From positions 1 to 64,000 of IMG/VR virus record IMGVR_UViG_3300020227_000045: a stretch of DNA of 64,000 nucleotides; one strand, given 5' to 3'. The notes below the pieces were generated by a model, which did not search any database, was not told where the DNA came from, and saw nothing but the letters and a program-made list of their open reading frames with translations. Both the position numbers and the translations under genes were made by a program. This stretch comes from a virus (taxonomy: Duplodnaviria; Caudoviricetes). How positions within the stretch are numbered: the first letter of the stretch is position 1; each line of letters begins with the position of its first letter. Positions 541 to 59,403 of the stretch are shown here, in pieces.

Positions 541-1682
541 TAACCTCCCCATCAGATAACTTTATACTTATATCGCCTACCCACCTATTAAACTTTTTAA
601 CTAATAGTGTCCTCTTCAATACTTATTTTATTGTATAAATTTTTTATCTAATTGTAGGCTAATCAATGCTAGTGATATTATATTGTGTGCTAATGATTAA
701 TTAATGAATTATAATCAGTAGTTAATCAGTTGTAATCAAGGGAAAAGTTTTACTTCTTATACAGTGTTATACCATTTAATTATTGTATTAACTTATATGA
801 AAGGTTTTATATAAATAAATTATAAAATAGAATATAAAAAAATAACCGCTTCAATGTTTAGTTAATGAAGCGGTTTAAATATATTTATTATTAGGTTGTG
901 TGATATCGTATTCAAATTATGTAGGGTAGTACAAGGCTAAAAAGGTTTATTATACTATAAATAATTTATATAGTATACTGTTACGGTTTCCCGCACTAAA
1001 GGATTTGCTACGGATATGAAGCGGACTATATTATAGATTAGAATGATTCTAATCTATAAACCTAACCTTTTACCCTAGGGATAAAGGCACTAAAAAATAA
1101 AAGACTGTAGGCAAGGGATTTATATTTTTATTTTATTCAAATTTAGTTATATTTCTATAAGAGTAAAAAGTTAAGGAGGTTTAAATAATAAAATTATATT
1201 ATCAATTAGGTATTAGTAAATGATAATATTAGATATATTTTATTTAGTGTAGTGTAATACTTAAATGAATTTAGTCGGAGTCTTTCCCGTTACTCCTCTT
1301 GAGTAACTCTGGAAGTCTGATTTCTACTTCACTTATAATGATACTACATTTTGGTATAAATTGCAATAGGTTTAGGGAAATTCTTTTTACTTTCTTTTAT
1401 TATTATATAAATTTATTATAGATATTTTAGGGTATCACTTCCATGATACTACAGTTTAGGTATAATGTCAAACACTTTCTTATACAGATTAACTTTACCT
1501 TTGTTCTGTATAGATTAATGTATTTACGATGTATTTATCCTTAATAGTATTAAATAATAGAGAGAGTAGGCTCTCTTTGGTCTGTAAGAGTTATAGGGCA
1601 TATTTGTATTGAATTATAGTTATTGTTCAATGTGAGGTGTCTGAGAGGGTTGTATATGTATATCCGCTTCATTTAGAAGCGG

Positions 1683-1964
1683 TTAGGTGGTTATTTTTCT
1701 TTTTTTATCTTGTATACCTTTGTGCATTTTGTTTATTAGGTCTTGCTTGTATTCTTTTGACTTGTAACTAGGTATCATAATATGTTTACCTTCTACAGTC
1801 GTCCTAATTTCTAAAGGTCTGTTATTTTTATCGGTTTCAATAATTTCAATACTATTTAAAGGATATTTATTTAAAACCTTTTCTATGTCTTTCTTAACCT
1901 TTGTTTGTATCATTGTTGTGTTTTCTTCTTCATTATATACAATAACAGTACTTTTTACATCCAT
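1683..1964 (-). CDS. Hypothetical protein, 93 aa (terminal-repeat-region type)
   Basis: ORF with upstream AAAGGA RBS and a leftward TTAAGT..TATACT promoter-like site. Confidence 0.7.
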   Translation of the reverse strand: MDVKSTVIVYNEEENTTMIQTKVKKDIEKVLNKYPLNSIEIIETDKNNRPLEIRTTVEGKHIMIPSYKSKEYKQDLINKMHKGIQDKKRKITT

Positions 1965-12498: not shown

Positions 12499-12684
12499 AT
12501 TAATCCGTTGTCAAAAATTTATAAAACTCTATAAATTTTATTCCTTATTCAACGTACCCCTTTTTGAGTATTTCACTATAAATAGCTACTTCTGATTACT
12601 CTACTAAGGTTTGTGTGATACTCCAAAGGCTTAAATTCCCATACAACGAATGGTACATATATTTAGTATCGTGTTAGTGATATT
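12495..12684 (-). ncRNA. Putative TnpB omegaRNA scaffold (right end)
   Basis: GTACC..GGTAC and CCTTTGGAGTAT..ATACTCAAAAAGG stems downstream of tnpB. Confidence 0.65.
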
Positions 12685-26099: not shown

Positions 26100-26465
26100 T
26101 TATTCTTCACTCCTAACAATCGTTATTGAAGTAGAATTATTAAATGTTCTATTCTTAATATCTTCACTAACATTTACCTTAACTTCAAATGGTTCTTCGA
26201 TATAATAAAACATCTTTCGACTACTATAAACAATATCATAATCCTCAAGTTTAATATGATTATCTTTATCTACAAGAATAACTTTATCGTCTGTTGTAGC
26301 CTCTAATATCATATATTTAACTTTATCTATAGCAATAAATACCGTAACGTGTTTACCACCAATTTGTCTATAGTAATCGACAACTTCTATCCAATTATTT
26401 TTCATTCCTTGTTCTTCAATAAATTTTTTAGCTTCTACCCACTTCTTATCTTGTCCATATGTCAA
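26100..26465 (-). CDS. Conserved hypothetical protein upstream of portal
   Basis: ORF, coupled to portal. Confidence 0.7.
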   Translation of the reverse strand: MTYGQDKKWVEAKKFIEEQGMKNNWIEVVDYYRQIGGKHVTVFIAIDKVKYMILEATTDDKVILVDKDNHIKLEDYDIVYSSRKMFYYIEEPFEVKVNVSEDIKNRTFNNSTSITIVRSEE

Positions 26466-26485
26466 TTTGTAATCACCATTATCTT

Positions 26486-26851
26486 TTAATCTTTTTTATA
26501 CCATATACTTTCATAGTTTTTTCGTTTTACATAGTTAGTAATTTCTACAATAACATATCCTACTACTACACCTATAGTTGACACAGACATAACAATCCAA
26601 ATATCAATGAAATAACTATAACGTGTTGTATTTGCTACTGTATCGAGAATATCATATCTAATTAATGATGCAGTTTCCCTAAACATTATTGTTAAGTATA
26701 CTGTTGATACTACTATTATAACATAAAATATTGAGTTGAACAATATTGTTTGTTTAGGTCTAAGTTGAACAATAATTATACCTAAGATAAGTAAAGAAGA
26801 AATAAAAGCTAAAATTGATGTTACTAAAATACCTGTATCCATTTTATACAC
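26486..26851 (-). CDS. Membrane protein, 121 aa
   Basis: Three hydrophobic segments. Confidence 0.75.
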   Translation of the reverse strand: MYKMDTGILVTSILAFISSLLILGIIIVQLRPKQTILFNSIFYVIIVVSTVYLTIMFRETASLIRYDILDTVANTTRYSYFIDIWIVMSVSTIGVVVGYVIVEITNYVKRKNYESIWYKKD

Positions 26852-29959: not shown

Positions 29960-32900
29960 TTAATCATCTAAAAAGAAATTATTATTGTCTTCATAGTTTG
30001 TATTAATGAATACAGAATCAAATTCATTTTCATTATTTTTAATGTACAAGTCTTCTAGACGTGATAGACCAATTCTAGCATATATACTTGCTTGACTATA
30101 GTGGTCATCGCCTTTTCTCTTGATTACTTGATACATTTCTTCTGTTCTACTATCTTCTTCATCTCTAATTACCACATTTTGCCAATGTTTAAGAAGTATA
30201 GCTTTATCGTTATCATTTTCTTGGTAAATTCTTATTCTTCCTGTTTTTAAATCTTGGATATAAATTTTGTTCTGCATTAATTTATCTACAGTAACAATAT
30301 TTGAATTCTCATTGAATACAGGTTTAATTTGTCCAGATGATTTAGGAGATGATTTGTAAGTACAACCAAACACAATATCTTCACCAAAGTATTGTTGAAG
30401 TCTTAGTAGGTTGTTTCCTGAATCTCCTGTATCTGCTACAATAATATCTGGATTATATTTAGAAAATTCTACACGTATTTGTTCTATATCTGATTCAACC
30501 ATATTAGGGTTTTTATTTCTTTTAACATTAAATAACCTAATTAAGTCTATCTTACCATCTTCGGTCATTCCATGTATAGTGCAATAATGAACATTTCCCC
30601 AATCCACTGATGCTGCGATAAATTTATAATCTCCTCTATTAAACATTTGTTTCTTAGCAATAGGAGATTGATTATCATAAATATCTTCTTGTAATACTTT
30701 CATCTTCTGGTCTTCATAAGGGAATCCTAGCGTGTAGTTATAAAACAATTGGGTTGATTCAGTGTTCATTTCTTTTTCTTTTAATTCACTAGCTGAAATC
30801 CAACATTTTTTGTTACGATTGAGTTCGTTATTCTCAACCTTCTATATATCGCTATATAAGTTCAGACTATATCTTTACCTTATCAAATGAGACTTAGGTA
30901 TCCTCTGTTTCGTGCTACTTAGCACTACTAATTAGTCGTTGCACGTTCTCTTATTACAAGAGCTTCGCTCATGATTATCTCTAATGAGAGACTTCCCATG
31001 AATTAAAAGGACTTCACTCTGTACATTTCTATATAGAGGGGCTTGGTTAACCGCATTTAGCTGTGAAATAAAATAACCTCTTGTTCCTTTTCCACCTTTA
31101 GTTCTTTCAGGGTACTTACAGTGCCATTCACCGTTATACCATCTATCTAGAAGTTTACCACATTTTTGACAAACAAATTGGTAACTTCCTTCTTGCACTG
31201 TTTTAGCCATCTCGTCAACACCTTCAGGATTGACTAATAGGATATTCCCACTCTTCTCTAAATTATCTGGGTCATAATCTTCATAACTCATTTCATTTAA
31301 GTAATCACAATGTGTACATCTATGACCATAATACCATTGGTCAGATTGCATGTAGAGTTTATGGATTCCCATATTTGGAGTCGTCTTAAACATTATTATT
31401 TTCATAATAAAATGGACTATCTCATAATCCTTATTTTTGGTTAAGGATTCTCTGCTTTACGAAATTAATCTCTTATCTGATTCTACCTTACTCCTTTTAG
31501 TAAGTTACTCAGAAATTTAGTCTCTAGGCATTTACAAGTATATAACTTGATTTAGCAATTGATTGTCTACAGCTTTACCTGTTTAGAGTTTCCAATTTTA
31601 ACAGAGTTTTTCAAAACAAATTACTTTGTTAAGCCCCACGATTTAACATAGGGGTACTCCAACGTCTTATAACCTTGAAAGGTGAACTTGACATTGATTC
31701 CATTGCTGATGATTCTGATGATGAAGGTACTCTATCATATTCCAAATTATACCGCTAGTTTCCTAGTATTTACTTACGGTTTAGACTATCTCATAACTAC
31801 TTACTTAGGTTAGTAGCTCCTTGCTTTACGAAATTAATCTCTTATCTGATTCTACCTTACTCCATTTAGTAAGTTACTCAGAAATTTAGTCGTTAGGCAT
31901 TTATCAGTTAATAACTGAATTTAGCAATTGATTGCCCTCAGCATTATCTGTTAGGGGTTTCCAATTTTAACAAGGTTTATACTGGACAAATTTTATCCAG
32001 TGACAAATAATCAATCATTTTTTTACTTAATACCCCTACTTTCGTAGTACTTTAACACTATTTAAATAGTGGGCTTAGACTATATCTTAGCTATTCATTA
32101 ATAGCTCCTTGCGTTACTTCTCTTTGAAAGAGTTTTTTTATCTAAAGTAATTTAGAAATTTAGTCGTTAGAGATTTTCCTCTACATAAAGTAGATTCTTT
32201 CCTACGGTATTCCCTCTATCCTTATAGGACTTAGGGTCTCTTACCAGCTACTTAAAGCTATGACCGTTTAGCAAGGTTTAACGTGAACAGATTATTTTAT
32301 CCACGCCTTCTAAAGCTTTAGGTGTAGAACTTGTTCTAAAGAACATACTTGAATTTCTTATTTGTTTATATTTCAAGGAATCATTATCTTGGTTAATTAT
32401 GCTTGCAAAATAAGGTTGTTGCAGTGTAGGGTTTATCCTACTTTGTACGAACTTTTGCATTTGATCACTGGTTGGGTCTAGGGTATACCGCTAGTTTCCT
32501 AGTACTTTAACACTTAATTAAAAGTCGGAGTAGACTATATCATAATCCTTATTTTCGGTTAAGGACTCTCTACGTTACGGATTAAATATCCTTTTATCTA
32601 GTTCTCAATATTCCCTTTTGAATATTTACCTAGAAGATTAGTCGTTAGGCATTTACGTAACTAAGGTATATATACCTTAGTTCGATTTAGCAATTGATTG
32701 TCCTCATCATTACATGTTAGGAGTTTCCAATTTTAGTAGAGTTATTCGATATACATTACTGTATAAAGCCTCCCCTAATTATTTGAAGGTGAACATACAT
32801 TTGACCGAATCTTTACTATGCGTATCTGCAAAGTGTAACATCTTATTGTATCCAACTTCACTTACGTTTATACCGTCACTTTCGTGATATTTATATACGG

Positions 32901-33750
32901 ACTAGACTATATCTTGATTGTATAAAGATAATTTTAATTACGGTTTATACAACCCCTTGCTTTACGAAATTAATCTTTTATACTGTTCTACACTCAACCA
33001 TTTATGAGCTTACCAGTAATTTTAGTCGTTCGGCATTTATCAGTTAGTAACTGAATTTAGCACAGGATTGTCCTCAACTTTACTTGTTAGGAGTTTCCCT
33101 GTTTAACAAGGTTTTACTTGAACAAATTTTTATCCAAGTTGTCTCGACTTAAGTACTGCTATGTTAGGATGTTTGTCATTACGTTTATACCGTCACTTTC
33201 GTGATATTTATATACGGACTAGACTATATCATAATCCTTATCTTTGGTTAAGGATTCTCTGCTTTACATTATTTATATTAAATAAATAACTATTATCTAG
33301 TTCTCAGTATCTCCTTTTAGATACCTACCTAGAAATTTAGTCGTTAGCCATTTATCTTAATTCTATTATAACATACACATTTAGTGTTGTCAATACTAAA
33401 ATTAAGAATTTAGGAAGGGATTCTCACTATCCGTTTGGACTTAGAGTTTCTTATCAGGATATTCTTTATTTTCCTATGCCCTTTTAACAGAGTTATTCGA
33501 TATACATTACTGTATAAAGTCACATTATTTATATGATAGCAATTTGCCATGGTCTATGAGCTTGAGCTTTACTTTTATCTCTATTTGGTATAGAAAAAGT
33601 AATATTATGACCACGTATTAAATTGTGTTTCAACATATAAGCAGTTGTACTAGACATTGTTAATACATAATCTAACTGTTCTTGGGTAACATTTGTAGTT
33701 CCATATGTGGATATGAGTAAGTCTTTTAATTGTTTTCCATCCATTTTCAT
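29960..33750 (-). CDS. terL: Terminase large subunit, split by 7 group I introns (605 aa after splicing)
   Basis: Exons 33750-33533, 33181-33132, 32864-32787, 32477-32299, 32015-31995, 31742-31650, 31384-31050, 30803-29960 sum to 1818 nt in frame: HRPWQIAII|NDKHPNIAVLKSRQLG|LSE..MFT|YPT..EGVD|IDYLSLD|EYDR..WSTP|TTPNMG..NAV|WISA; collinear with phage K terminase. Confidence 0.92.
30804..31049 (-). ncRNA. Group I intron terL-I7 (246 nt)
   Basis: GT|..ATG|TTGG junctions; P7 motifs. Confidence 0.88.
31385..31649 (-). ncRNA. Group I intron terL-I6 (265 nt)
   Basis: CCT|..AAG|ACG junctions; GAGACTA and GAGATAGTCC P7 strands. Confidence 0.88.
31743..31994 (-). ncRNA. Group I intron terL-I5 (252 nt)
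   Basis: Splits the Walker B region (SLD|EYD); P7 motifs. Confidence 0.9.
32016..32298 (-). ncRNA. Group I intron terL-I4 (283 nt)
   Basis: GAT|..G|ATT junctions, P7 motifs. Confidence 0.9.
32478..32786 (-). ncRNA. Group I intron terL-I3 (309 nt)
   Basis: U/G junctions, P7 motifs, frame restored (T|AC = Tyr). Confidence 0.85.
32865..33131 (-). ncRNA. Group I intron terL-I2 (267 nt)
   Basis: U/G junctions, P7 motifs, frame restored. Confidence 0.9.
33182..33532 (-). ncRNA. Group I intron terL-I1 (351 nt, no ORF)
   Basis: Upstream exon ends in U, intron ends in G; AACGACTA and GATATAGTCT P7 strands. Confidence 0.88.
33365..33393 (-). promoter_or_regulatory. Consensus sigma-A promoter inside terL intron 1
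   Basis: TTGACA-17nt-TATAAT, extended TG. Confidence 0.7.
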
Positions 33751-36339: not shown

Positions 36340-36800
36340 ACAATTAAATAAAGAGCTGATGAGTACACATAACGGTGAGATGTGTAGGGATAGCGACAAT
36401 GAGGAAGTTAAATCGGAGCTTCGAGCATCACCATAAGAATTCGATGGGTATATATGTAAATAAATAGTACAATGGTGCATATATTTCCAGATTTGGTGAT
36501 GACTACCAATGTACTAAAAAGGTCAGGGAGGTTTCTTGTTGTGCTTTGCACAGGGGAGCCTTGTTCCCATATACAGACTTCACGAGGGGCGGTAGCTATC
36601 CCCTCTTTAAACATTATAACTAAAGGCTAAACGAAGTAGTATTGGTTGTTAGGACAAGAATTAACGTAAAACAAGGTTAGCACTAGACCGTAATCTATAC
36701 ATATTTTATACACTATGATTATATCTTTCTAGTTACAATTCTGTTGTACCTAGGGGATAAGTCTACCCGTAATGCTACGCAAACCTAAACAAATAAAACA
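36340..36800 (+). ncRNA. Candidate large structured ncRNA A (about 450 nt)
   Basis: GC-enriched, no credible ORF, TGTTATACT upstream, multiple nested and crossing complementarities. Confidence 0.5.
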
Positions 36801-37229
36801 CAAAACAAATAACCTAAATAATTAATAACTCATTACTTACTGTAGACTTATCTAATAATTAAATAAATTAAATAATAAATATATAGAGTAATTAAGATAT
36901 ACAGAAAACTAAATAAATATACAGTATATATAAATAAACTTAATAAACATATATAAATATATTAAATTAATTAAGTAATTGTAGTGAAGAATTAGAGCGA
37001 ATCTTTATAACTTAATTATATACATATACATACATAAATATTAAGATATACTAAATAAAATAACTTAGTATATATTTTTTAAAATAAGTGTTGACATATT
37101 ATGATTTATAAGTTATAGTTAACATATACTAATTATTCAAGATATTAATTAAAAAAAGTTATTGACAAACATTAATAAATATATTATAATTAGATATATA
37201 AAATAAATTAAAGAAAAGGAAATGATAAT

Positions 37230-37439
37230 ATGAAAAAACAAGTAATGGTTTACAGTAAATTAGAATGTCAAGAATGTGGAAGTAACTTAAGTATTCCTAG
37301 AAAAAGAGCTAAGAAAAGAAGTGAAGGACACATTAAACATATGTATTGTCCTACATGTCAATCAACTACAGGATTTATAGAAACAAGTAAAGACAAATCA
37401 TATGATTTTTGGGAACAATGGCAAGCACAATTTAACTAA
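37230..37439 (+). CDS. Zinc-ribbon protein resembling ribosomal protein L33
   Basis: LECQECG..S..RK..KK......K.YCPTC..T....ET spacing parallels bacterial L33. Confidence 0.55.
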   Translation: MKKQVMVYSKLECQECGSNLSIPRKRAKKRSEGHIKHMYCPTCQSTTGFIETSKDKSYDFWEQWQAQFN

Positions 37440-37453
37440 GGAGATGGTGAGAG

Positions 37454-37756
37454 ATGAGTAACTATACAAATCATGGACAGAAAAGACTACGTAAAAGACA
37501 AGGTGTTAAGAAAAGTAATTTAGAAGATGAAATAGATAAAGTGTTAGAAGAAGGATTAAGTCATGGTGATTGTAAAGGTAAGCTTAAGAAATACTTAGAC
37601 AGACTATGGTTTAGTCATAAGAGTGGTTACTTCAGAGTTTACAAATCTAATATTTATATATTTGACTTTAATACAGATAGATTAATTACAATGTATGCTC
37701 TACCTGGACACTTAAATAAGATTTATCAACAATGTTTAAAAAAGAAATCAATTTGA
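37454..37756 (+). CDS. Hypothetical protein, possible DUF4258/RelE-like (BECR) fold
   Basis: YTNHGQKRLRKR...I..VL..G...IYIFD....LITMY pattern. Confidence 0.45.
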   Translation: MSNYTNHGQKRLRKRQGVKKSNLEDEIDKVLEEGLSHGDCKGKLKKYLDRLWFSHKSGYFRVYKSNIYIFDFNTDRLITMYALPGHLNKIYQQCLKKKSI

Positions 37757-37872
37757 TTTTGTAAAAATGGACTTGTGTGTTATAATGTAATTAAGTAGTT
37801 GAGATACACTACTTAAACCACATGCCCACCCTATATATTCAGAGAGATTAAGTTCTCTCTGTTTATACATAT

Positions 37873-38420
37873 ATTAGTGTATTGAAAGCACTTGTTATAA
37901 TGACTGAATAATGGTTTGGTATCCATAAAGTACAAGATAATCAAACGAACTAAAACCTATCGGGTTAATCAATCGGTAGGATAGGTCGTCATTAGTATTG
38001 TTTAATATGATTGGTATACTTGGTACTTGGTTATAAGGTCTGTAGAGTATGATAACAGCTAGAGTTTAACTTCTTCTTAGGGTCTTAGCGGAATCCTAGG
38101 AAGATACGCTGTAACAACTTCCTGTAGTTGGAGCACAGAAATGTGTTTGATAATAGAGGTTATCAGTACAAGTAGCATAAACCTACAGTTCAAAAGATAT
38201 ATATTTGATAAAAATAATTATGTAATCAAATAATTTACTTCTTCGACCATGTGAACGTTACTAACTATTATGTTAGTATCACATTATCCTTTTGGATTAC
38301 GTGAGATGGACTTAAGGTAGCTCCTTAATAGAGTCAAGCGTAGTGATTCACTTAATAACAGGTCTTATAATCAGGTTCTCGGTGAGACGAGTTATAACAG
38401 GTGCTTTGATTACATTAGTA
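37873..38420 (+). ncRNA. Candidate large structured ncRNA B (about 550 nt; ROOL-like)
   Basis: 5'/3' terminal stem (37874-37891 with 38401-38418, 16 of 18 pairs), many internal hairpins, no ORF, late promoter upstream. Confidence 0.6.
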
Positions 38421-38559
38421 ATCCCATAACAATAATTCCTCCGTTTTATTTATTACATTTTTTATTGTTATATTAAGTCCTAGGTATATGAAAAGATATT
38501 GTAGTTATCAAAAATTTAAATCATATAAATCCTCCTTTCCCTTTGTTTTTTGTATAGAT

Positions 38560-38890
38560 TCATTCTACAGTCAAATCGAAGTAGTATACCTATAAACCCA
38601 CTTTAAATAAATAGTATGGATGAACAGTGGGCTCCATACCATACATAAACATTTTAACATATGACTGTTTTTTAGACCTTATCCTGTTTTCCAGTATAAA
38701 CAATAACTAATGATAAGGGATATGTAAGAATAATTAGGGTGAGAGTTTAGCTACCTCTTGCTTAATGCTTAGCGACTGTATCTAACTCTTTGGACAGTAT
38801 AAAATTTGCAAAGACGGGCAGTTTAGCGAGGAGACCTGCGGTACCAAACATCTCGCTTACATAATAGTAATTGATATCGACCCTGATTAA
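38560..38890 (+). ncRNA. Candidate pseudoknotted ncRNA C
   Basis: H-type pseudoknot 38597-38639 plus long-range stems; TGTTATATTA at 38466. Confidence 0.4.
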
Positions 38891-38934
38891 AGCTTTATCA
38901 ATTCTTTTTTACATATATTAAAAGGAGAAAACCT

Positions 38935-39120
38935 ATGGCTAGTTATAAACAAACTAACTATGTAAATAGTTTAATTGTAAAAGGTTTAATGGAAGATAAA
39001 ATTAAAGACAAACAAGACTTACTAGATAAATTAGAAATCCTTGATGGGGTTAGTTTATCAGACTTTGACACAAAAGAAACTTCCGATATTATTAAAAAAT
39101 TAAATACAATAGTAGAATAA
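38935..39120 (+). CDS. Conserved small protein upstream of holin
   Basis: AAAGGAG RBS; resembles the phage K MASAKQ.. protein. Confidence 0.75.
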   Translation: MASYKQTNYVNSLIVKGLMEDKIKDKQDLLDKLEILDGVSLSDFDTKETSDIIKKLNTIVE

Positions 39121-39754: not shown

Positions 39755-42730
39755 ATGGTTGCAAAACTCACAGAAAAAGAAGCAATAGCATTTGTCAAAA
39801 GTTTAGAAGGTAAGAAAATAGACTTTGATGGATGGTACGGATATTAACATAATGGTATCCTAACTCATTGAATTGACGGGAACCCCCTTAGAGCTTTAAC
39901 TACTAACTTATCATGGTGACATAGGTAAGGGCAAACAGTAATGTGTTTGGTAAAGTAAAAAAGTTAAAGATTGGGAAATCCGCAGGTAAGCTACTATGGT
40001 AACAGTAGTAGAAACTTCAACGACTAAATACTATCAATTGGTAGTTAGTGGTGAGTACTTGATAAAAGTTAAGTAATAATATAGTCTGTTCTTATAGGAA
40101 ACTATAAGAGTTACATTATACAATCAATGGTAGAAATATTATTGAGGAAAGATGATAACATAACAAAAAGCAATGTTTTGACCTAGCTAATGAATATTGG
40201 AATAAATTATTTGGCACAAGTCTTAAAGGTGTAGGAGCAAAAGACATACCTAATTCAAATAATTTTAAAGGTATAGCTAAGGTATATAATAATACATCTT
40301 CATTTAAAGCTAAACCAGGTGATTTGGTAATTTTCAACTCATCTTATGGTGGCGGGTATGGTCACGTAGCTATAGTTTTAAATGGAAATGCAGATGGAAA
40401 TTTAATGAAGTTTGTAAGTCTTGACCAGAATCAAATAAGGTTCCCTTTATATAGTAATATATAATTGAATAACACATTAAATTGCTGGAACCCCGTAAAG
40501 CTCAATTAACTACAACGTAATAGGAAACTATAAGCGTGAAAGTTAGGAAACTAGAAAAAATAATTGAGATACCATAAGCTGAGAAAAAGCTCAAAGAGTG
40601 CTAAGTGGTGAATAATCGGAAATCAGCATCCAAACCTACAAATAGTGGGGAGGTTCAACGACTATAATATGTGGCTCCTATAAGGAGTATGGTATAGTCT
40701 AGTCCGTAAATAAATACTAGGAAACTAGCGGTATAGACGTGGCAAGGCGGAGGATGGACAAGTGGTCCAGAAAAAGGTGGTACAGGTTGGGAAGCAGCAA
40801 CAAGAGTAACTCATCCATACGATTTCCCTATGTGGTTTATCAGACCATATTACAAAGAAGAGTCAAAAACAAAAACTACAAGTAAAAAAACAACAGCTAA
40901 GAAAAAAGCTAAAAAACTAACTTATATTCGTGATGAAGTAAAAGGTTATCGTTTACCTAATCGTGGATATAAGCCAAAAGGGATAGTTCTACACAACGAT
41001 GCGGGTAGTGCAGGTGCTACAGCTGAAGCGTACCATCGTGGATTAGTAAATGCACCATACTCAAGATTAGCTGCTGGTATTGCTCATTCTTATATCAGTG
41101 GTAACACAGTATATCAAGCATTACCAGAAAGCAGAGTAGGTTGGCATACGGCTTAATTTAGGTCATTTGTATAGTAATATACATCTAAATGTGTTTTAAT
41201 TCAGAGGAAGTCTAAACAATATAAGTTGTAGATAATTCTGAGCTAAGTTTATATTGACATATAATTATATTTATTGTATAATATTCATAGGAGGAGATTT
41301 TATGGAATTATACAAATTAGAAAATATTAAAGGTTTAGAAGAATTAAAAGGATACTCAATAGATAAAGAAGGTAACGTATACTCTCACAAATATACAACT
41401 TCGAATGGTAATACTTTTTATTATCATATATCAAATGAACCAGTTAAGAAATTAACTACTAAAAAAGATAGTAGAGGTTATATAAAAATAGGGTTAAACG
41501 GTAAAAGTTTATTCATTCATAGGCTGTTAGCTTTATTATTTATTCCTAATCCAGAGAATAAAGAACAAGTAAATCATATGAACGGTGTTAAAGATGATAA
41601 TAGAATAGAAAATTTAGAATGGTGTACAAACAGAGAAAATAGAATACATGCTATAGAGAATAATTTGTTAGATAACATACCTTATGGCATTTCTCAGTAC
41701 ACTAAAGAAGGGTTACATGTTAGAGATTATGATACTTGTTTAGAAGCTATAGAATACTTAGGCTTAGACAAAGGTGCTTCTGGAAATATAGGAAGATGTA
41801 TTAGAGGTAAAAGAAAAACAGCTTATGGTTATATATGGAAGTCAATATAAAAAAGTGCAACGACTATCCCTTAGGACGAGTGCCAATAAAAATAAATCGT
41901 CAACAGGAGTAGGGCTCAAGTCAATGGAGTGGGTGAAAATCCCTTAAATCGAAAAGGACACTTCCTTTTATAAGGAAAAGATATAGTCTATTCTTATAGG
42001 AAACTATAAGGAGTTCATAAGAGAACCAATAAAGAGTTACGAACTTTATTGAATATTAAAGAACCAAAATGGTAATAAAAATTACTATGGTATAGAAATA
42101 TGTCAATCTATAGGTGCAAGTGATAAAGTATTCTTAGCTAATGAACAAGCATCTTTCCAAGAAGCTGCTCGTTTATTAAATAAATGGGGATTAACAGCTA
42201 ATAGAAATACTATCCGTTTACACATGGAATTTTCTCAAACTAGCTGTCCTCATAGAAGTATGAAGTTACACACTGGTTTTGACCCTGTAACACAAGGCGT
42301 ACCTTCAAAAGCTACACAGCTTAAACTCAAAGACTATTTTATTAAGCAAATTCGTGCTTATCAAAATGGTAAAATACCAACTGCAACTGTTTCTAAAAAC
42401 ACTAGCTCTGCAAGCAATACAAAATCAACTGTAGCAGGAAAATGGAAACGTAATTCTTTCGGAACGTATTACATGACAGAAAAAGCTAGATTTACTAATG
42501 GTAATCAACCTATAGCAGCAAGAACAGTAGGACCTTTCAGAAGTTGTCCATTAGCTTATTGGTTCCAACCAGGAGGATACTGTGATTATGACGAAGTAAT
42601 GCTTCAAGATGGTCACGTATGGATTGGATATGATTGGCAAGGACAAAGATATTATCTTCCTATACGTACATGGAATGGAGTAGCTCCTCCAAATCAAGGT
42701 TTAGGAAACCTTTGGGGTTCAATTAAGTAA
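39755..42730 (+). CDS. Endolysin CHAP-Amidase_2-SH3b, split by 3 group I introns (477 aa after splicing)
   Basis: Exons 39755-39844, 40171-40431, 40740-41153, 42062-42730: WYGY|QCFD..LDQN|WQGGG..GWHTA|NQNGN; amidase and SH3b are LysK-like. Confidence 0.92.
39845..40170 (+). ncRNA. Group I intron lys-I1 (326 nt, no ORF), just before the catalytic QC of CHAP
   Basis: U/G junctions; CAACGACTA and TATAGTCT motifs. Confidence 0.88.
40432..40739 (+). ncRNA. Group I intron lys-I2 (308 nt, no ORF)
   Basis: AAT|..ACG|TGG; CAACGACTA and TATAGTCTAGTCC motifs. Confidence 0.88.
41154..42061 (+). mobile_element. Group I intron lys-I3 (908 nt) encoding an HNH homing endonuclease
   Basis: HTA|NQ site as in the phage K lysK intron; P7 motifs after the ORF. 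Confidence 0.9.
41302..41850 (+). CDS. Intron-encoded HNH endonuclease with NUMOD1-like C-terminus
   Basis: [30 protein letters not shown]; own TTGACA-17-TATAAT promoter and GGAGG RBS. Confidence 0.88.
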   Translation: MELYKLENIKGLEELKGYSIDKEGNVYSHKYTTSNGNTFYYHISNEPVKKLTTKKDSRGYIKIGLNGKSLFIHRLLALLFIPNPENKEQVNHMNGVKDDNRIENLEWCTNRENRIHAIENNLLDNIPYGISQYTKEGLHVRDYDTCLEAIEYLGLDKGASGNIGRCIRGKRKTAYGYIWKSI

Positions 42731-58136: not shown

Positions 58137-59403
58137 ATGGCAAGTGAAGCTAAACAGTCCATTCACACTGGTAATACCGTCTATCTCATGATTAAAGGTA
58201 AAATTGTAGGCAGAGCTCAATCAGCTTCAGGTACTCGTGAATACGGTACTGAGGGCGTATATGAAATTGGTTCAATTATGCCACAAGAACACGTTTACCT
58301 TAGATATGAAGGTACGGTTACAATAGAAAGATTACGAATGAAAAAAGAAAACTTCGCAAAATTAGGATATGCTTCTTTAGGTGAAGAAATCCTTAAAAAA
58401 GATGTTATCGACATTTTAGTTGTAGATAACTTAACTAAGAGTGTAATCATAGCATACCATGGTTGTAGTGCTAATAACTATAAAATTTGTAGCTTTAGGA
58501 AGTAATTCCTATCGAAAAACTTTTCTAAACAGGGAAACCTAAGTACAATTTGTATAAGGCAATCCTGTGCTAAATTGACTTAATCAGTCATAAATGCCAA
58601 ACGACTAACAGAAACCTATTCATATAAGTGAAGGGAGTAAGAGTACAGCCAAGTGGTCAAGGTGTTGGGTAATAACCAAATAAATCCTTGTTAAATGGAA
58701 AAGAAAAGAATCCTTAATATAAAAAGGATTATGATATAGTCTCATCTATATGGAAACATATAGCAGTTCTAAAAGAACGTACAATGATTAACGACCATTG
58801 TAGAAGTAAATGGATGAAGAAATTAATACCAATGAAATGATTACAGAAAGTATTGAGTAGGTAAAAAGCTCCTATAATCAGAAATGGTTATAGCAAATCT
58901 CTCTAATTCATGGAAACCCCTAACAAGTAATGATGAGGGCAATCATGAGCGAAGCTCTTAAAACAAGAGAACGTGCAACGACTAGTCTACGGACGTACAA
59001 TCAAGTGATTGGAAATGGGAGACACCTTCAATTTTAAGGTGATGATATAGTCTGAACTATATGGAAACATATAGAAGGATAGAATTAACGATTCTATTCG
59101 TAACAAAATTGTTTCTTATCTTACAGCATTAAATTTCTAGTGCCCTTATACAGTAATGTATATTGAATCAATCCTCTAATTCAGGGAAACCCTAAACGAA
59201 ATTAAGACGTAGGCAATCCTGAGCCAAGCCTATAATTAGGAAGGTGCAACGACTATCTCTAAGGAGAGTACGCTCAAGTGAGTGGAAATGGGGATTATCC
59301 TATACAATATAGGATAGTGATATAGTCTGGACTATATGGAAACATATAGAAGGTTAGGAGTAACGAACCTAATCGTAACATAATCGCAGATAAAGCATCA
59401 TAA
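58137..59403 (+). CDS. Tail tube protein, split by 3 group I introns (141 aa after splicing)
   Basis: Exons 58137-58481, 58813-58858, 59112-59129, 59387-59403: CSANNY|DEEINTNEMITESIE|FSYLTA|SDKAS. Confidence 0.92.
58482..58812 (+). ncRNA. Group I intron tube-I1 (331 nt)
   Basis: U/G junctions, P7 motifs. Confidence 0.88.
58859..59111 (+). ncRNA. Group I intron tube-I2 (253 nt)
   Basis: U/G junctions, P7 motifs. Confidence 0.9.
59130..59386 (+). ncRNA. Group I intron tube-I3 (257 nt)
   Basis: U/G junctions, P7 motifs. Confidence 0.9.

Follow-up and report, generated by a model that had tools for sequence, protein, structure and literature searches.

A structured RNA gene near the lysis module of a Staphylococcus phage is very probably a divergent ROOL

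What occupies the interval between 37756, where the genes of the plus strand (+) end, and 38935, where they start again, in the virus record IMGVR_UViG_3300020227_000045? We have analysed positions 1 to 64,000 of this record (64,000 nucleotides (nt), here termed the window), which is part of a Staphylococcus Twortvirinae phage with phiSA_BS1/BS2 (Baoshanvirus) and Golestan101-M as its nearest relatives. A first-pass annotation made from the letters had proposed a closed, structured non-coding RNA of about 550 nt, free of open reading frames (ORFs) and resembling the ROOL class. The proposal has stood up well. Window 37876-38416 (+) is a stand-alone, non-coding RNA of roughly 540 nt with a 25-base-pair (bp) closing helix and very strong covariation, whose fold has been conserved by compensatory evolution, and that fold is homologous helix for helix to the ROOLs of Enterococcus, Brochothrix and Listeria phages of the Herelleviridae. 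Very probably, then, the element is a divergent ROOL-family RNA gene, the Baoshan-like orthologue of the Kayvirus transcript lncRNA2. It contains no ORF of any size, the longest within 37871-38422 being 30-38 amino acids (aa).

Covariation, whose absence the first-pass annotation had named as a ground for refutation, is extensive. The structure was modelled by RNAalifold and an exhaustive scan for covarying stacks on an alignment (A2) of 23 homologues from eight Staphylococcus Twortvirinae lineages, 55-99% identical. The model comprises 135 pairs in 18 helices with standard pairs in 97.8% of cells, compared with 37-40% in a control where the 3′ partners were slid by 1-3 columns. Compensatory double changes are present in 89 of the 135 pairs, against 14-25 in the slid controls, and none of 500 shuffles reached the observed covariation values. 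The single sequence is itself unusually stable, with a minimum free energy z-score of -6.3, and none of 100 shuffles folded as well. The fold holds two long-range helices and three pseudoknot-type contacts (PK1, P7 and PK-A), and is made up of the following elements.

37876-37900 / 38392-38416 (+): P1, closing helix of 25 bp; 97% of cells paired, 13 compensatory pairs
37903-38022 (+): 5′ domain, with 2-7 covarying pairs in each helix
37903-05/37929-31 (+): P1a, which covaries
37911-15/37922-26 (+): P2 hairpin, in the 5′ domain
37933-44/38011-22 (+): P3, in the 5′ domain, enclosing P3.1, P3.2 and P3b
37918-37920 with 38246-38248 (+): PK-A, P2-loop bases with bases just 3′ of the linker; GGU:ACC becomes GAU:AUC, 100% paired
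38025-38048 / 38350-38376 (+): P4 and P4b, long-range helix of 23 bp (19 + 4 pairs), 15 compensatory
38050-38165 (+): central domain, comprising P5, P6, PK1 and P8
38050-61/38154-65 (+): P5, in the central domain
38072-83/38093-104 (+): P6 hairpin of 12 bp, in the central domain
38087-90 with 38107-10 (+): PK1, AGCG of the P6 loop with the tetranucleotide CGCU following the hairpin; covaries
38131-37/38142-48 (+): P8 hairpin with an invariant GAAA loop, in the central domain
38123-27/38183-87 (+): P7, pseudoknot UGUAG/CUACA crossing P5; 5 pairs, 100% paired, 3 compensatory
38166-76 (+): hallmark GUACAAGUAGC, between the P7 strands; kept in Listeria, Enterococcus and Brochothrix members and in the ROOL consensus
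38175-78/38249-52 (+): linker-closing helix GCAU/AUGU, 4 bp; inner pair U-A in 12 and C-G in 11 sequences
about 38188-38236 (+): variable A/U-rich linker (A2 columns 326-402), differing between lineages in length and sequence
38237-38349 (+): 3′ domain, comprising P11, P12, P9 and P10, with UUCUUC and GUGAACGUU motifs
38259-65/38272-78 (+): P11 hairpin, kept with different sequence in Sepunavirus, Twort and Sciuriunavirus
38286-89/38294-97 (+): P12 hairpin, in the 3′ domain
38296-302/38338-44 and 38305-07/38333-35 (+): P9, in the 3′ domain
38312-17/38323-28 (+): P10, with palindromic loop UAGCU (38318-22); 3 of 4 tested pairs covary
38378-80/38389-91 (+): P13 hairpin with a conserved GUGAGA-type loop; 3/3 pairs compensatory

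The closing helix is preserved as a pairing while its sequence is replaced. P1 is kept with quite different sequences in the Kay-like, Silviavirus, Twort-like, Listeria and Enterococcus relatives; the Kay-like flanks form a 17-bp helix of unrelated sequence, and those of Silviavirus yet another helix. Four of the five pairings named at first pass are now part of the model. That between 37874-37891 and 38401-38418 belongs to P1, CCTATCG/CGGTAGG is P3.2 (four of five tested pairs covary), TTAAGG/CCTTAA is P10, and TACTAAC/GTTAGTA is P11, a hairpin that was misaligned by MAFFT and so is not formally counted in the covariation. The fifth, TAATGAC/GTCATTA, is complementary in the window but is not kept in the Sepunavirus and Twort lineages, and it competes with the covarying P1 and P1a; covariation lends it no support. 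A further contact between A2 columns 123-125 and 551-553 (37988-37990/about 38345-38347) was kept out of the model, being a single clade split with one mismatch. The loop contacts vary in a concerted manner, PK1 changing from AGCG:CGCU to GGUG:CACC and AGUG:CACU. The core of the P10 loop is AGCU, UAGCUA or GCUAGC in most lineages and UUGCAA in Sciuriunavirus, where the double change of AGCU to UGCA thus retains self-complementarity.

To which family does this RNA belong? When the Rfam model of ROOL (RF03087) is applied to the element alone (571 nt) it scores 52.1 bits (expectation value (E) 1.2e-9) over window 38040-38362. In the resulting alignment P4/P4b, P5, P8, the hallmark, the linker helix, P11, P12 and P9/P10 are placed on the corresponding consensus elements in the same order, P4 on the '{ }' helix, P5 on the '[ ]' helix and P8 on the GAAA hairpin of the ROOL consensus. 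Three hallmarks present in that consensus, GUAcAAGUAGC, GUGAA-GUU and the GGU-GCUCC loop, occur in exact or near-exact form at window 38166, 38250 and 38316, spaced as they are in EF24C, Revolver, A9 and A511.

Structure-aware models built from either side converge on one domain. A covariance model of the central domain made from Staphylococcus sequences only (R1) finds Listeria phage A511 at 26434-26577 with 83.5 bits (E about 1e-18) and compensatory changes in P5 and P6, and matches Enterococcus phage phiEF24C weakly at 21.4 bits. The RNAs of A511 and phiEF24C are 560-595 nt in length, have terminal helices of their own and lie beside transfer RNA (tRNA) genes. The A511 ROOL is located at A511 26,191-26,749, equivalent to 1258-1816 (-) of the locus L134. 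A broadened model that includes Staphylococcus sequences (R2) finds Enterococcus phage Revolver at 53.8 bits and Brochothrix phage A9 more weakly; A9 has all three sequence hallmarks at the right spacing. In the opposite direction, a model from A511 and three Enterococcus ROOLs only, with A9 left out (R3), matches window 38048-38189 at 64.5 bits (E 2.4e-14), the next-best match in the 64 kilobases (kb) being 14.4 bits, and scores 63-75 bits in each of the other seven Staphylococcus lineages. R1 and R3 both cover window 38048-38189. The family call made at first pass is thus upheld by RF03087, by R1 in A511 and by R3 in the window. RF03087 itself recognizes the non-Staphylococcus members over their full length.

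phiEF24C: 264.8 bits, full-length
EFDG1: 260.6 bits, full-length
Revolver: 242.6 bits, full-length
A9: 192.8 bits, full-length
A511: 87.5 bits (E 9e-17), full-length, below the gathering score of 99.1

The element also corresponds to a transcript already described. It is 83.7% identical over 499 nt to vB_SauM-515A1 37983-38519 (minus strand), which coincides with the published lncRNA2 (38,000-38,525); hence the window RNA is an lncRNA2 orthologue. It has the same strand relative to the holin and lysin genes as Kayvirus lncRNA2, and a matching position relative to the holin/lysin module, holin and lysin being downstream in the closest relative. In 515A1 lncRNA2 accounts for 8.4% of all normalized counts and rises 45-fold from 5 to 30 min (PMC7698491). 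The counterpart in phage K is the lncRNA between gp191 and gt004 (PMC9241854). In four RNA sequencing runs from three studies, picked using the window sequence (shares of the 1.2-kb query 0.10-0.17), the contigs on 37600-39000 are all 332-469 nt, lie wholly inside 37905-38403 and are 95-97% identical to the window. These are contigs only, with neither ends nor strand, and they have no bearing on habitat or expression level; as weak evidence, they fit a discrete, dominant RNA.

A number of observations weigh against the ROOL assignment, and several of them would suit a new class of large phage RNA that resembles ROOL by convergence in size, closure and context rather than by homology. The RF03087 match to the element is partial, spanning model positions 182-526 of 574, and lies under the gathering score, which is a working cut-off derived from the current seed, not a biological feature. 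There was no ROOL or GOLLD match in the Rfam gathering scan of the whole window, in a scan of 2 kb at E<=10, or in a scan of five other Staphylococcus members at E<=1. An nhmmer profile of five non-Staphylococcus ROOLs found nothing in the window and the Staphylococcus loci even at E 100, and since this sequence-only profile fails, the homology rests on structure-aware models. The R3 alignment was made with the Staphylococcus-aware R2, although no Staphylococcus sequence contributed to the parameters of R3. Within P5 the window has one clear long hairpin, a simpler arrangement than the additional helix and pair of hairpins of the ROOL consensus; that helix and the first of these hairpins inside the consensus '[ ]' are unaligned in the window. 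Lastly, the evidence for expression comes from contigs of relatives and from published homologues, not from this phage itself. Yet convergence would not lead us to expect reciprocal structure-aware matches (R1 and R3) on exactly one domain, eight elements or helices placed in ROOL order by the Rfam alignment, three hallmarks at matching spacing in all lineages, or a phage, A511, that is strongly matched from both sides. The new-class reading is already largely refuted, and we consider it very improbable. Because the 571-nt scan finds ROOL and the larger scans do not, the earlier Rfam misses are an effect of filters and sensitivity. It was therefore misleading to suppose, as at first pass, that a ROOL miss combined with strong covariation would indicate a new class. 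Of the Rfam models suggested there, ROOL was found, on the element alone and below threshold, while GOLLD and OLE, together with raiA, HEARO and the other large RNAs of Rfam 15, gave no match at E up to 10.

The same region might instead be something other than a functional stand-alone RNA: the long leader or spacer of an operon for tRNAs or lysis, the remains of a decayed tRNA cluster, or a primer or structural part of the nearby replication origin. The Kayvirus transcript continues into the tRNAs, the lncRNA of phage K being called as a transcript of 1154 nt, and a proposed AT-rich origin lies nearby in that phage (PMC9241854); in addition, no intrinsic terminator was found downstream of P1 in the window. 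Against this, the conserved block stops exactly at P1 in all lineages, with flanks that diverge or are rearranged, the closing helix covaries, no tRNA-like match was found within the element, the contigs of the RNA sequencing runs end inside it, and the homologues constitute a recognized stand-alone RNA family with solved structures. We give such explanations the least credence of those considered here, slightly below that of a new class, and retain a divergent ROOL gene as the preferred reading.

How widespread is this RNA? By BLAST, 244 Staphylococcus phage records share a block with sharp boundaries, window 37897-38395, at 82-97% identity. More sensitive searching extends this to 329 Staphylococcus phage records, with Silviavirus down to about 68% identity and partial matches in Sciuriunavirus, Sepunavirus and Twort-like phages. 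The block ends where the terminal helix starts, and the flanks of the lineages differ yet always pair together. Full-length copies of 527-580 nt are present in all eight Staphylococcus lineages, and family members overall are 527-607 nt. There are 53 Listeria and 68 Enterococcus phage records as well as Brochothrix A9, and more copies were found in IMG/VR (including Twort) and in three metagenome contigs. A pattern scan with a 27-nt motif gave 15 matches in IMG/VR, of which ten are true members, 78 in metagenomes (three true members) and 18 in GTDB genomes (none); the remainder are chance or an unrelated motif, with L066 (25.6 bits) left unassigned. A handful of related metagenome projects contain many short contigs that have the 27-nt pattern (GTTGGAG, GAAA loop, TT-GATAA) but nothing else of the family, among them L034, L042, L045, L053, L059, L061, L071, L072, L081, L093, L094 and L107. 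What these contigs carry is probably a repeat with a GAAA hairpin, unrelated to the family. SPO1 and LP65 yielded no member, their weak R2 matches (15.5 and 13.2 bits) lying inside ORFs of 355 and 354 aa and being due to chance. Kayvirus lncRNA1, which is downstream of tRNA-Met, has no homologue in the window and no similarity to lncRNA2.

The RNA has tRNA neighbours in the Kay-like, Silviavirus, Listeria, Enterococcus and A9 relatives. The tRNA starts 4 nt past P1 in Romulus, roughly 15 nt past it in EFDG1 and just past the ROOL match in A9, and where a tRNA adjoins in this way the 3′ end of the RNA may be made by RNase P. There are no tRNA genes in the entire 64-kb window. The window lineage keeps the RNA all the same, so a cis-linked tRNA is not required.

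ROOLs solved by cryo-electron microscopy (env-120, E. faecalis and a Firmicutes bacterium) are protein-free octameric cages with the variable linker inside, and at least one pairing first seen as covariation proved to be intermolecular (PMC12286853, PMC12515178). By analogy we can suggest how the present RNA might behave. Its own sigma-A-type promoter would drive transcription, reaching several per cent of transcripts by late infection as in the published homologues, and the closed, compact fold would shield both ends so that the RNA accumulates. Copies of it might then join by loop-loop contacts into a homo-oligomeric cage that needs no protein, with PK1 (P6 loop and 3′ flank), PK-A (P2 loop and linker flank) and the palindromic P10 loop as candidate bridges and the variable linker facing the interior. 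We would put the chances of cage assembly in the Staphylococcus clade at about even. Some points count against it. For the Staphylococcus-phage members the evidence for an oligomer is indirect, consisting of covarying loop contacts and of a P10 loop whose double change in Sciuriunavirus preserves self-complementarity. PK1, PK-A and the P10 contact could all be intramolecular, and PK-A would be compatible in sequence with either arrangement. Moreover, in the Twort lineage and in the ROOL consensus the P10 loop lacks the palindrome.

What such an RNA would do is more speculative, since no function is known for the ROOL family. In Silviavirus, EFDG1 and A9 a tRNA is found no more than about 20 nt from the 3′ end of P1, and this leads to one guess, that the RNA has a role in the tRNA or translation economy of the infected cell, either by displaying or protecting phage tRNA precursors or aiding their maturation, or by capturing a host RNA-handling or ribosome-linked factor; this is a tentative suggestion that we think unlikely to be correct as it stands. 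Its main rival is titration of a host factor. In this clade the ROOL homologue might bind and titrate a protein or an RNA as a monomeric or dimeric sponge or scaffold, in the manner of OLE or 6S RNA, instead of forming an empty cage of RNA alone, possibly together with the phrog_1257 protein described below. Staphylococcus and Listeria phages have the gene of this zinc-ribbon protein beside the RNA, the interior of P5 is unlike that of classical ROOL, the candidate contacts may be intramolecular, the very high copy number suits titration, and a ribosome pull-down has been reported for the large phage RNA GOLLD (PMC12286853). On the other hand, phrog_1257 was not found in the Enterococcus, Brochothrix A9, SPO1 and LP65 phages searched, the ROOL-bearing Enterococcus and Brochothrix phages included, and DUF2828, the 'RNA-binding protein' of Listeria phages, was not found in the Staphylococcus, Enterococcus and A9 phages searched. 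As each is confined to part of the phages, no protein partner is common to the whole family. Furthermore, elements that form quaternary bridges in the solved ROOLs seem to be kept in the window. A sponge or scaffold is thus an equally tentative prospect, with the odds clearly against it. Still more doubtful, though of wider consequence, is a scheme in which the Herelleviridae that infect Staphylococcus, Listeria, Enterococcus and Brochothrix have inherited ROOL vertically, as a core gene, from an ancestor, and in which the Staphylococcus/Listeria branch rebuilt the inner domain and gained phrog_1257 as a dedicated partner, giving in these lytic phages a ribosome- or tRNA-directed ribonucleoprotein or an altered oligomer in place of the empty octamer known from in vitro work. 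If true, the ribonucleoprotein with phrog_1257 would be the first handle on ROOL function.

Taking the element as a ROOL, its likeness to the known members is extensive. In common with them it has a length of about 550-600 nt, a terminal closing helix, long-range and inner helices in equal order, the GAAA hairpin and three hallmarks, a variable linker shut by a short helix, loop-to-flank pairing after a long hairpin, and a location in phages. Most relatives have tRNA neighbours, and high abundance is known for orthologues only. It differs in that the window lineage has an additional 5′ leader of ~80 nt, no tRNA gene nearby and a simpler region inside P5. The phages that carry it in the window clade are strictly lytic Staphylococcus myoviruses. 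Kayvirus lncRNA2, the orthologue, has the same fold with compensatory changes, but the sequence of its P1 is completely different, and it possesses a 36-nt extra hairpin in the 3′ domain, three tRNAs downstream and a promoter abutting P1. The papers describing lncRNA2 report the transcript only, and draw the likeness to ROOL or GOLLD from position and abundance (PMC7698491, PMC9241854).

A second known transcript can be assigned to the same family. In Listeria phage CKA15 (P100-like) the non-coding region from 26,727 to 26,236 is highly transcribed (PMC12282133). This region belongs here, the A511 RNA (BLAST 26,173-26,753) being 98.6% identical to CKA15 26,172-26,752. Y RNAs and a Ro60-like protein were considered by the authors of that study, who left the nature of the RNA open (PMC12282133); the Ro60-like family is the DUF2828 discussed above, which was likewise not found in the Brochothrix phage searched. 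GOLLD resembles ROOL in being large, ornate, phage-borne, near tRNAs and abundant late, and in forming an RNA-only cage with a disordered internal linker (PMC12286853). It differs in being >800 nt, with unrelated sequence and secondary structure, and had no Rfam match here at the thresholds used.

ROOL as a kind of RNA and lncRNA2 as a transcript were thus already known. We did not find in the searchable literature a demonstration of their homology, a covariation-backed structure for the Staphylococcus members, the bridge through Listeria, or the fact that the Rfam model misses this clade. In that literature ROOL is connected with Staphylococcus phages by two papers only, of which one argues from position and abundance and the other, a 2023 review, states sequence similarity without data; a comparison of sequences or structures is given in neither. 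The identification matters in several respects. ROOL is among the largest bacterial and phage RNAs of solved structure, and its function is not known. If our assignment is correct, then lncRNA2, which is ~8% of the transcriptome in therapeutic phage-K-like viruses and their most abundant transcript, is a ROOL, and so is the abundant unexplained RNA of the P100-like biocontrol phages of Listeria. The question of ROOL function would move into strictly lytic, genetically tractable phages for which RNA sequencing data exist and phenotypes such as burst size, timing and host range are easy to score. The current Rfam model misses the 329 Staphylococcus records, and the 53 Listeria records are expected to fall just under threshold like A511; the distribution of ROOL is thus underestimated, and in the missed clade the annotation of its loci is empty or consists of spurious 'hypothetical proteins'. 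The Baoshan-like member, with its own P1 sequence, a 5′ leader and no tRNA neighbour, also separates ROOL function from cis-linked tRNAs.

The element is set in a recognizable locus. On its 5′ side are a phrog_937 'hemolysin'-like gene, small ORFs and the zinc-ribbon gene, and on its 3′ side a small ORF followed by the holin/lysin module. The neighbouring features are these.

37230-37439 (+): gene of a zinc-ribbon protein of 69 aa, phrog_1257 (E 1e-24), a family labelled 'ribosome associated inhibitor A'
37759-37786 (+): sigma-70-like promoter-like site, TTGTAA, 16 nt, TATAAT with a TG extended -10; 10/12 hexamer matches
37787-37875 (+): 5′ leader of ~80 nt from promoter to P1, with two small hairpins predicted from sequence

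The upstream promoter noted at first pass can therefore be located, but its description as late-type does not agree with the Kayvirus homologue, which is an early promoter. In the Kay-like phages a TTGACA-17-TGTTATAAT promoter stands immediately 5′ of P1, its -10 box ~10 nt from the helix, and the homologous promoter, p78, has been mapped and classed as a 'typical early promoter' (PMC7698491). The RNA of the Kayvirus homologue accumulates late despite this promoter class. The leader is confined to the Baoshan-like lineage, being found also in an IMG/VR relative (L022), and the Kay-like phages are without it. Directly 5′ of the zinc-ribbon gene there is a second ORF-free stretch of ~600 nt (window 36631-37229); in the corresponding neighbourhood of phage K an untranscribed AT-rich region has been put forward as the replication origin (PMC9241854).

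Some features of the DNA 3′ of the RNA are also shared with relatives. CCUCC-type tracts (+) occur in the non-coding DNA 3′ of P1 at window 38424-38545; on the minus strand the tracts read as strong Shine-Dalgarno sites followed by mini-ORFs of 2-5 codons. Such tracts are present 3′ of the RNA in 515A1 too (L003 2100-2300). A conserved motif of ~55 nt, with an inverted repeat around TTGTTTTCCAGTATAAACAA, lies 3′ of the RNA at window 38657-38715. In the Kay-like, Sepunavirus and Sciuriunavirus loci examined it precedes the conserved core of the RNA by 110-260 nt, and this switch of position suggests a local rearrangement in the lineage of the window. In 515A1 the motif is within a small unit having its own TTGACA-17-TATAAT promoter and a terminator (L003:1262-1430), a candidate small RNA of ~130 nt.

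Other RNA families were also detected in the window. The Staphylococcus small RNA S808 (RF02897) is matched at 42295-42549 (+) with 85.2 bits against a gathering score of 76, overlapping an ORF of 168 aa (42224-42730) downstream of the lysis genes. There are five matches to group I introns (RF00028). Three on the plus strand (58471-58763, 58842-59074 and 59120-59349) are in tandem within 900 nt, and two on the minus strand (31393-31659 and 32883-33141) are in the terminase and neighbouring region. RAGATH-18 is matched at window 12541-12629 (-) with 60 bits (gathering score 44.9), and it is found in a second Staphylococcus phage lineage in Romulus (L004 3349-3438), at 63.8 bits.

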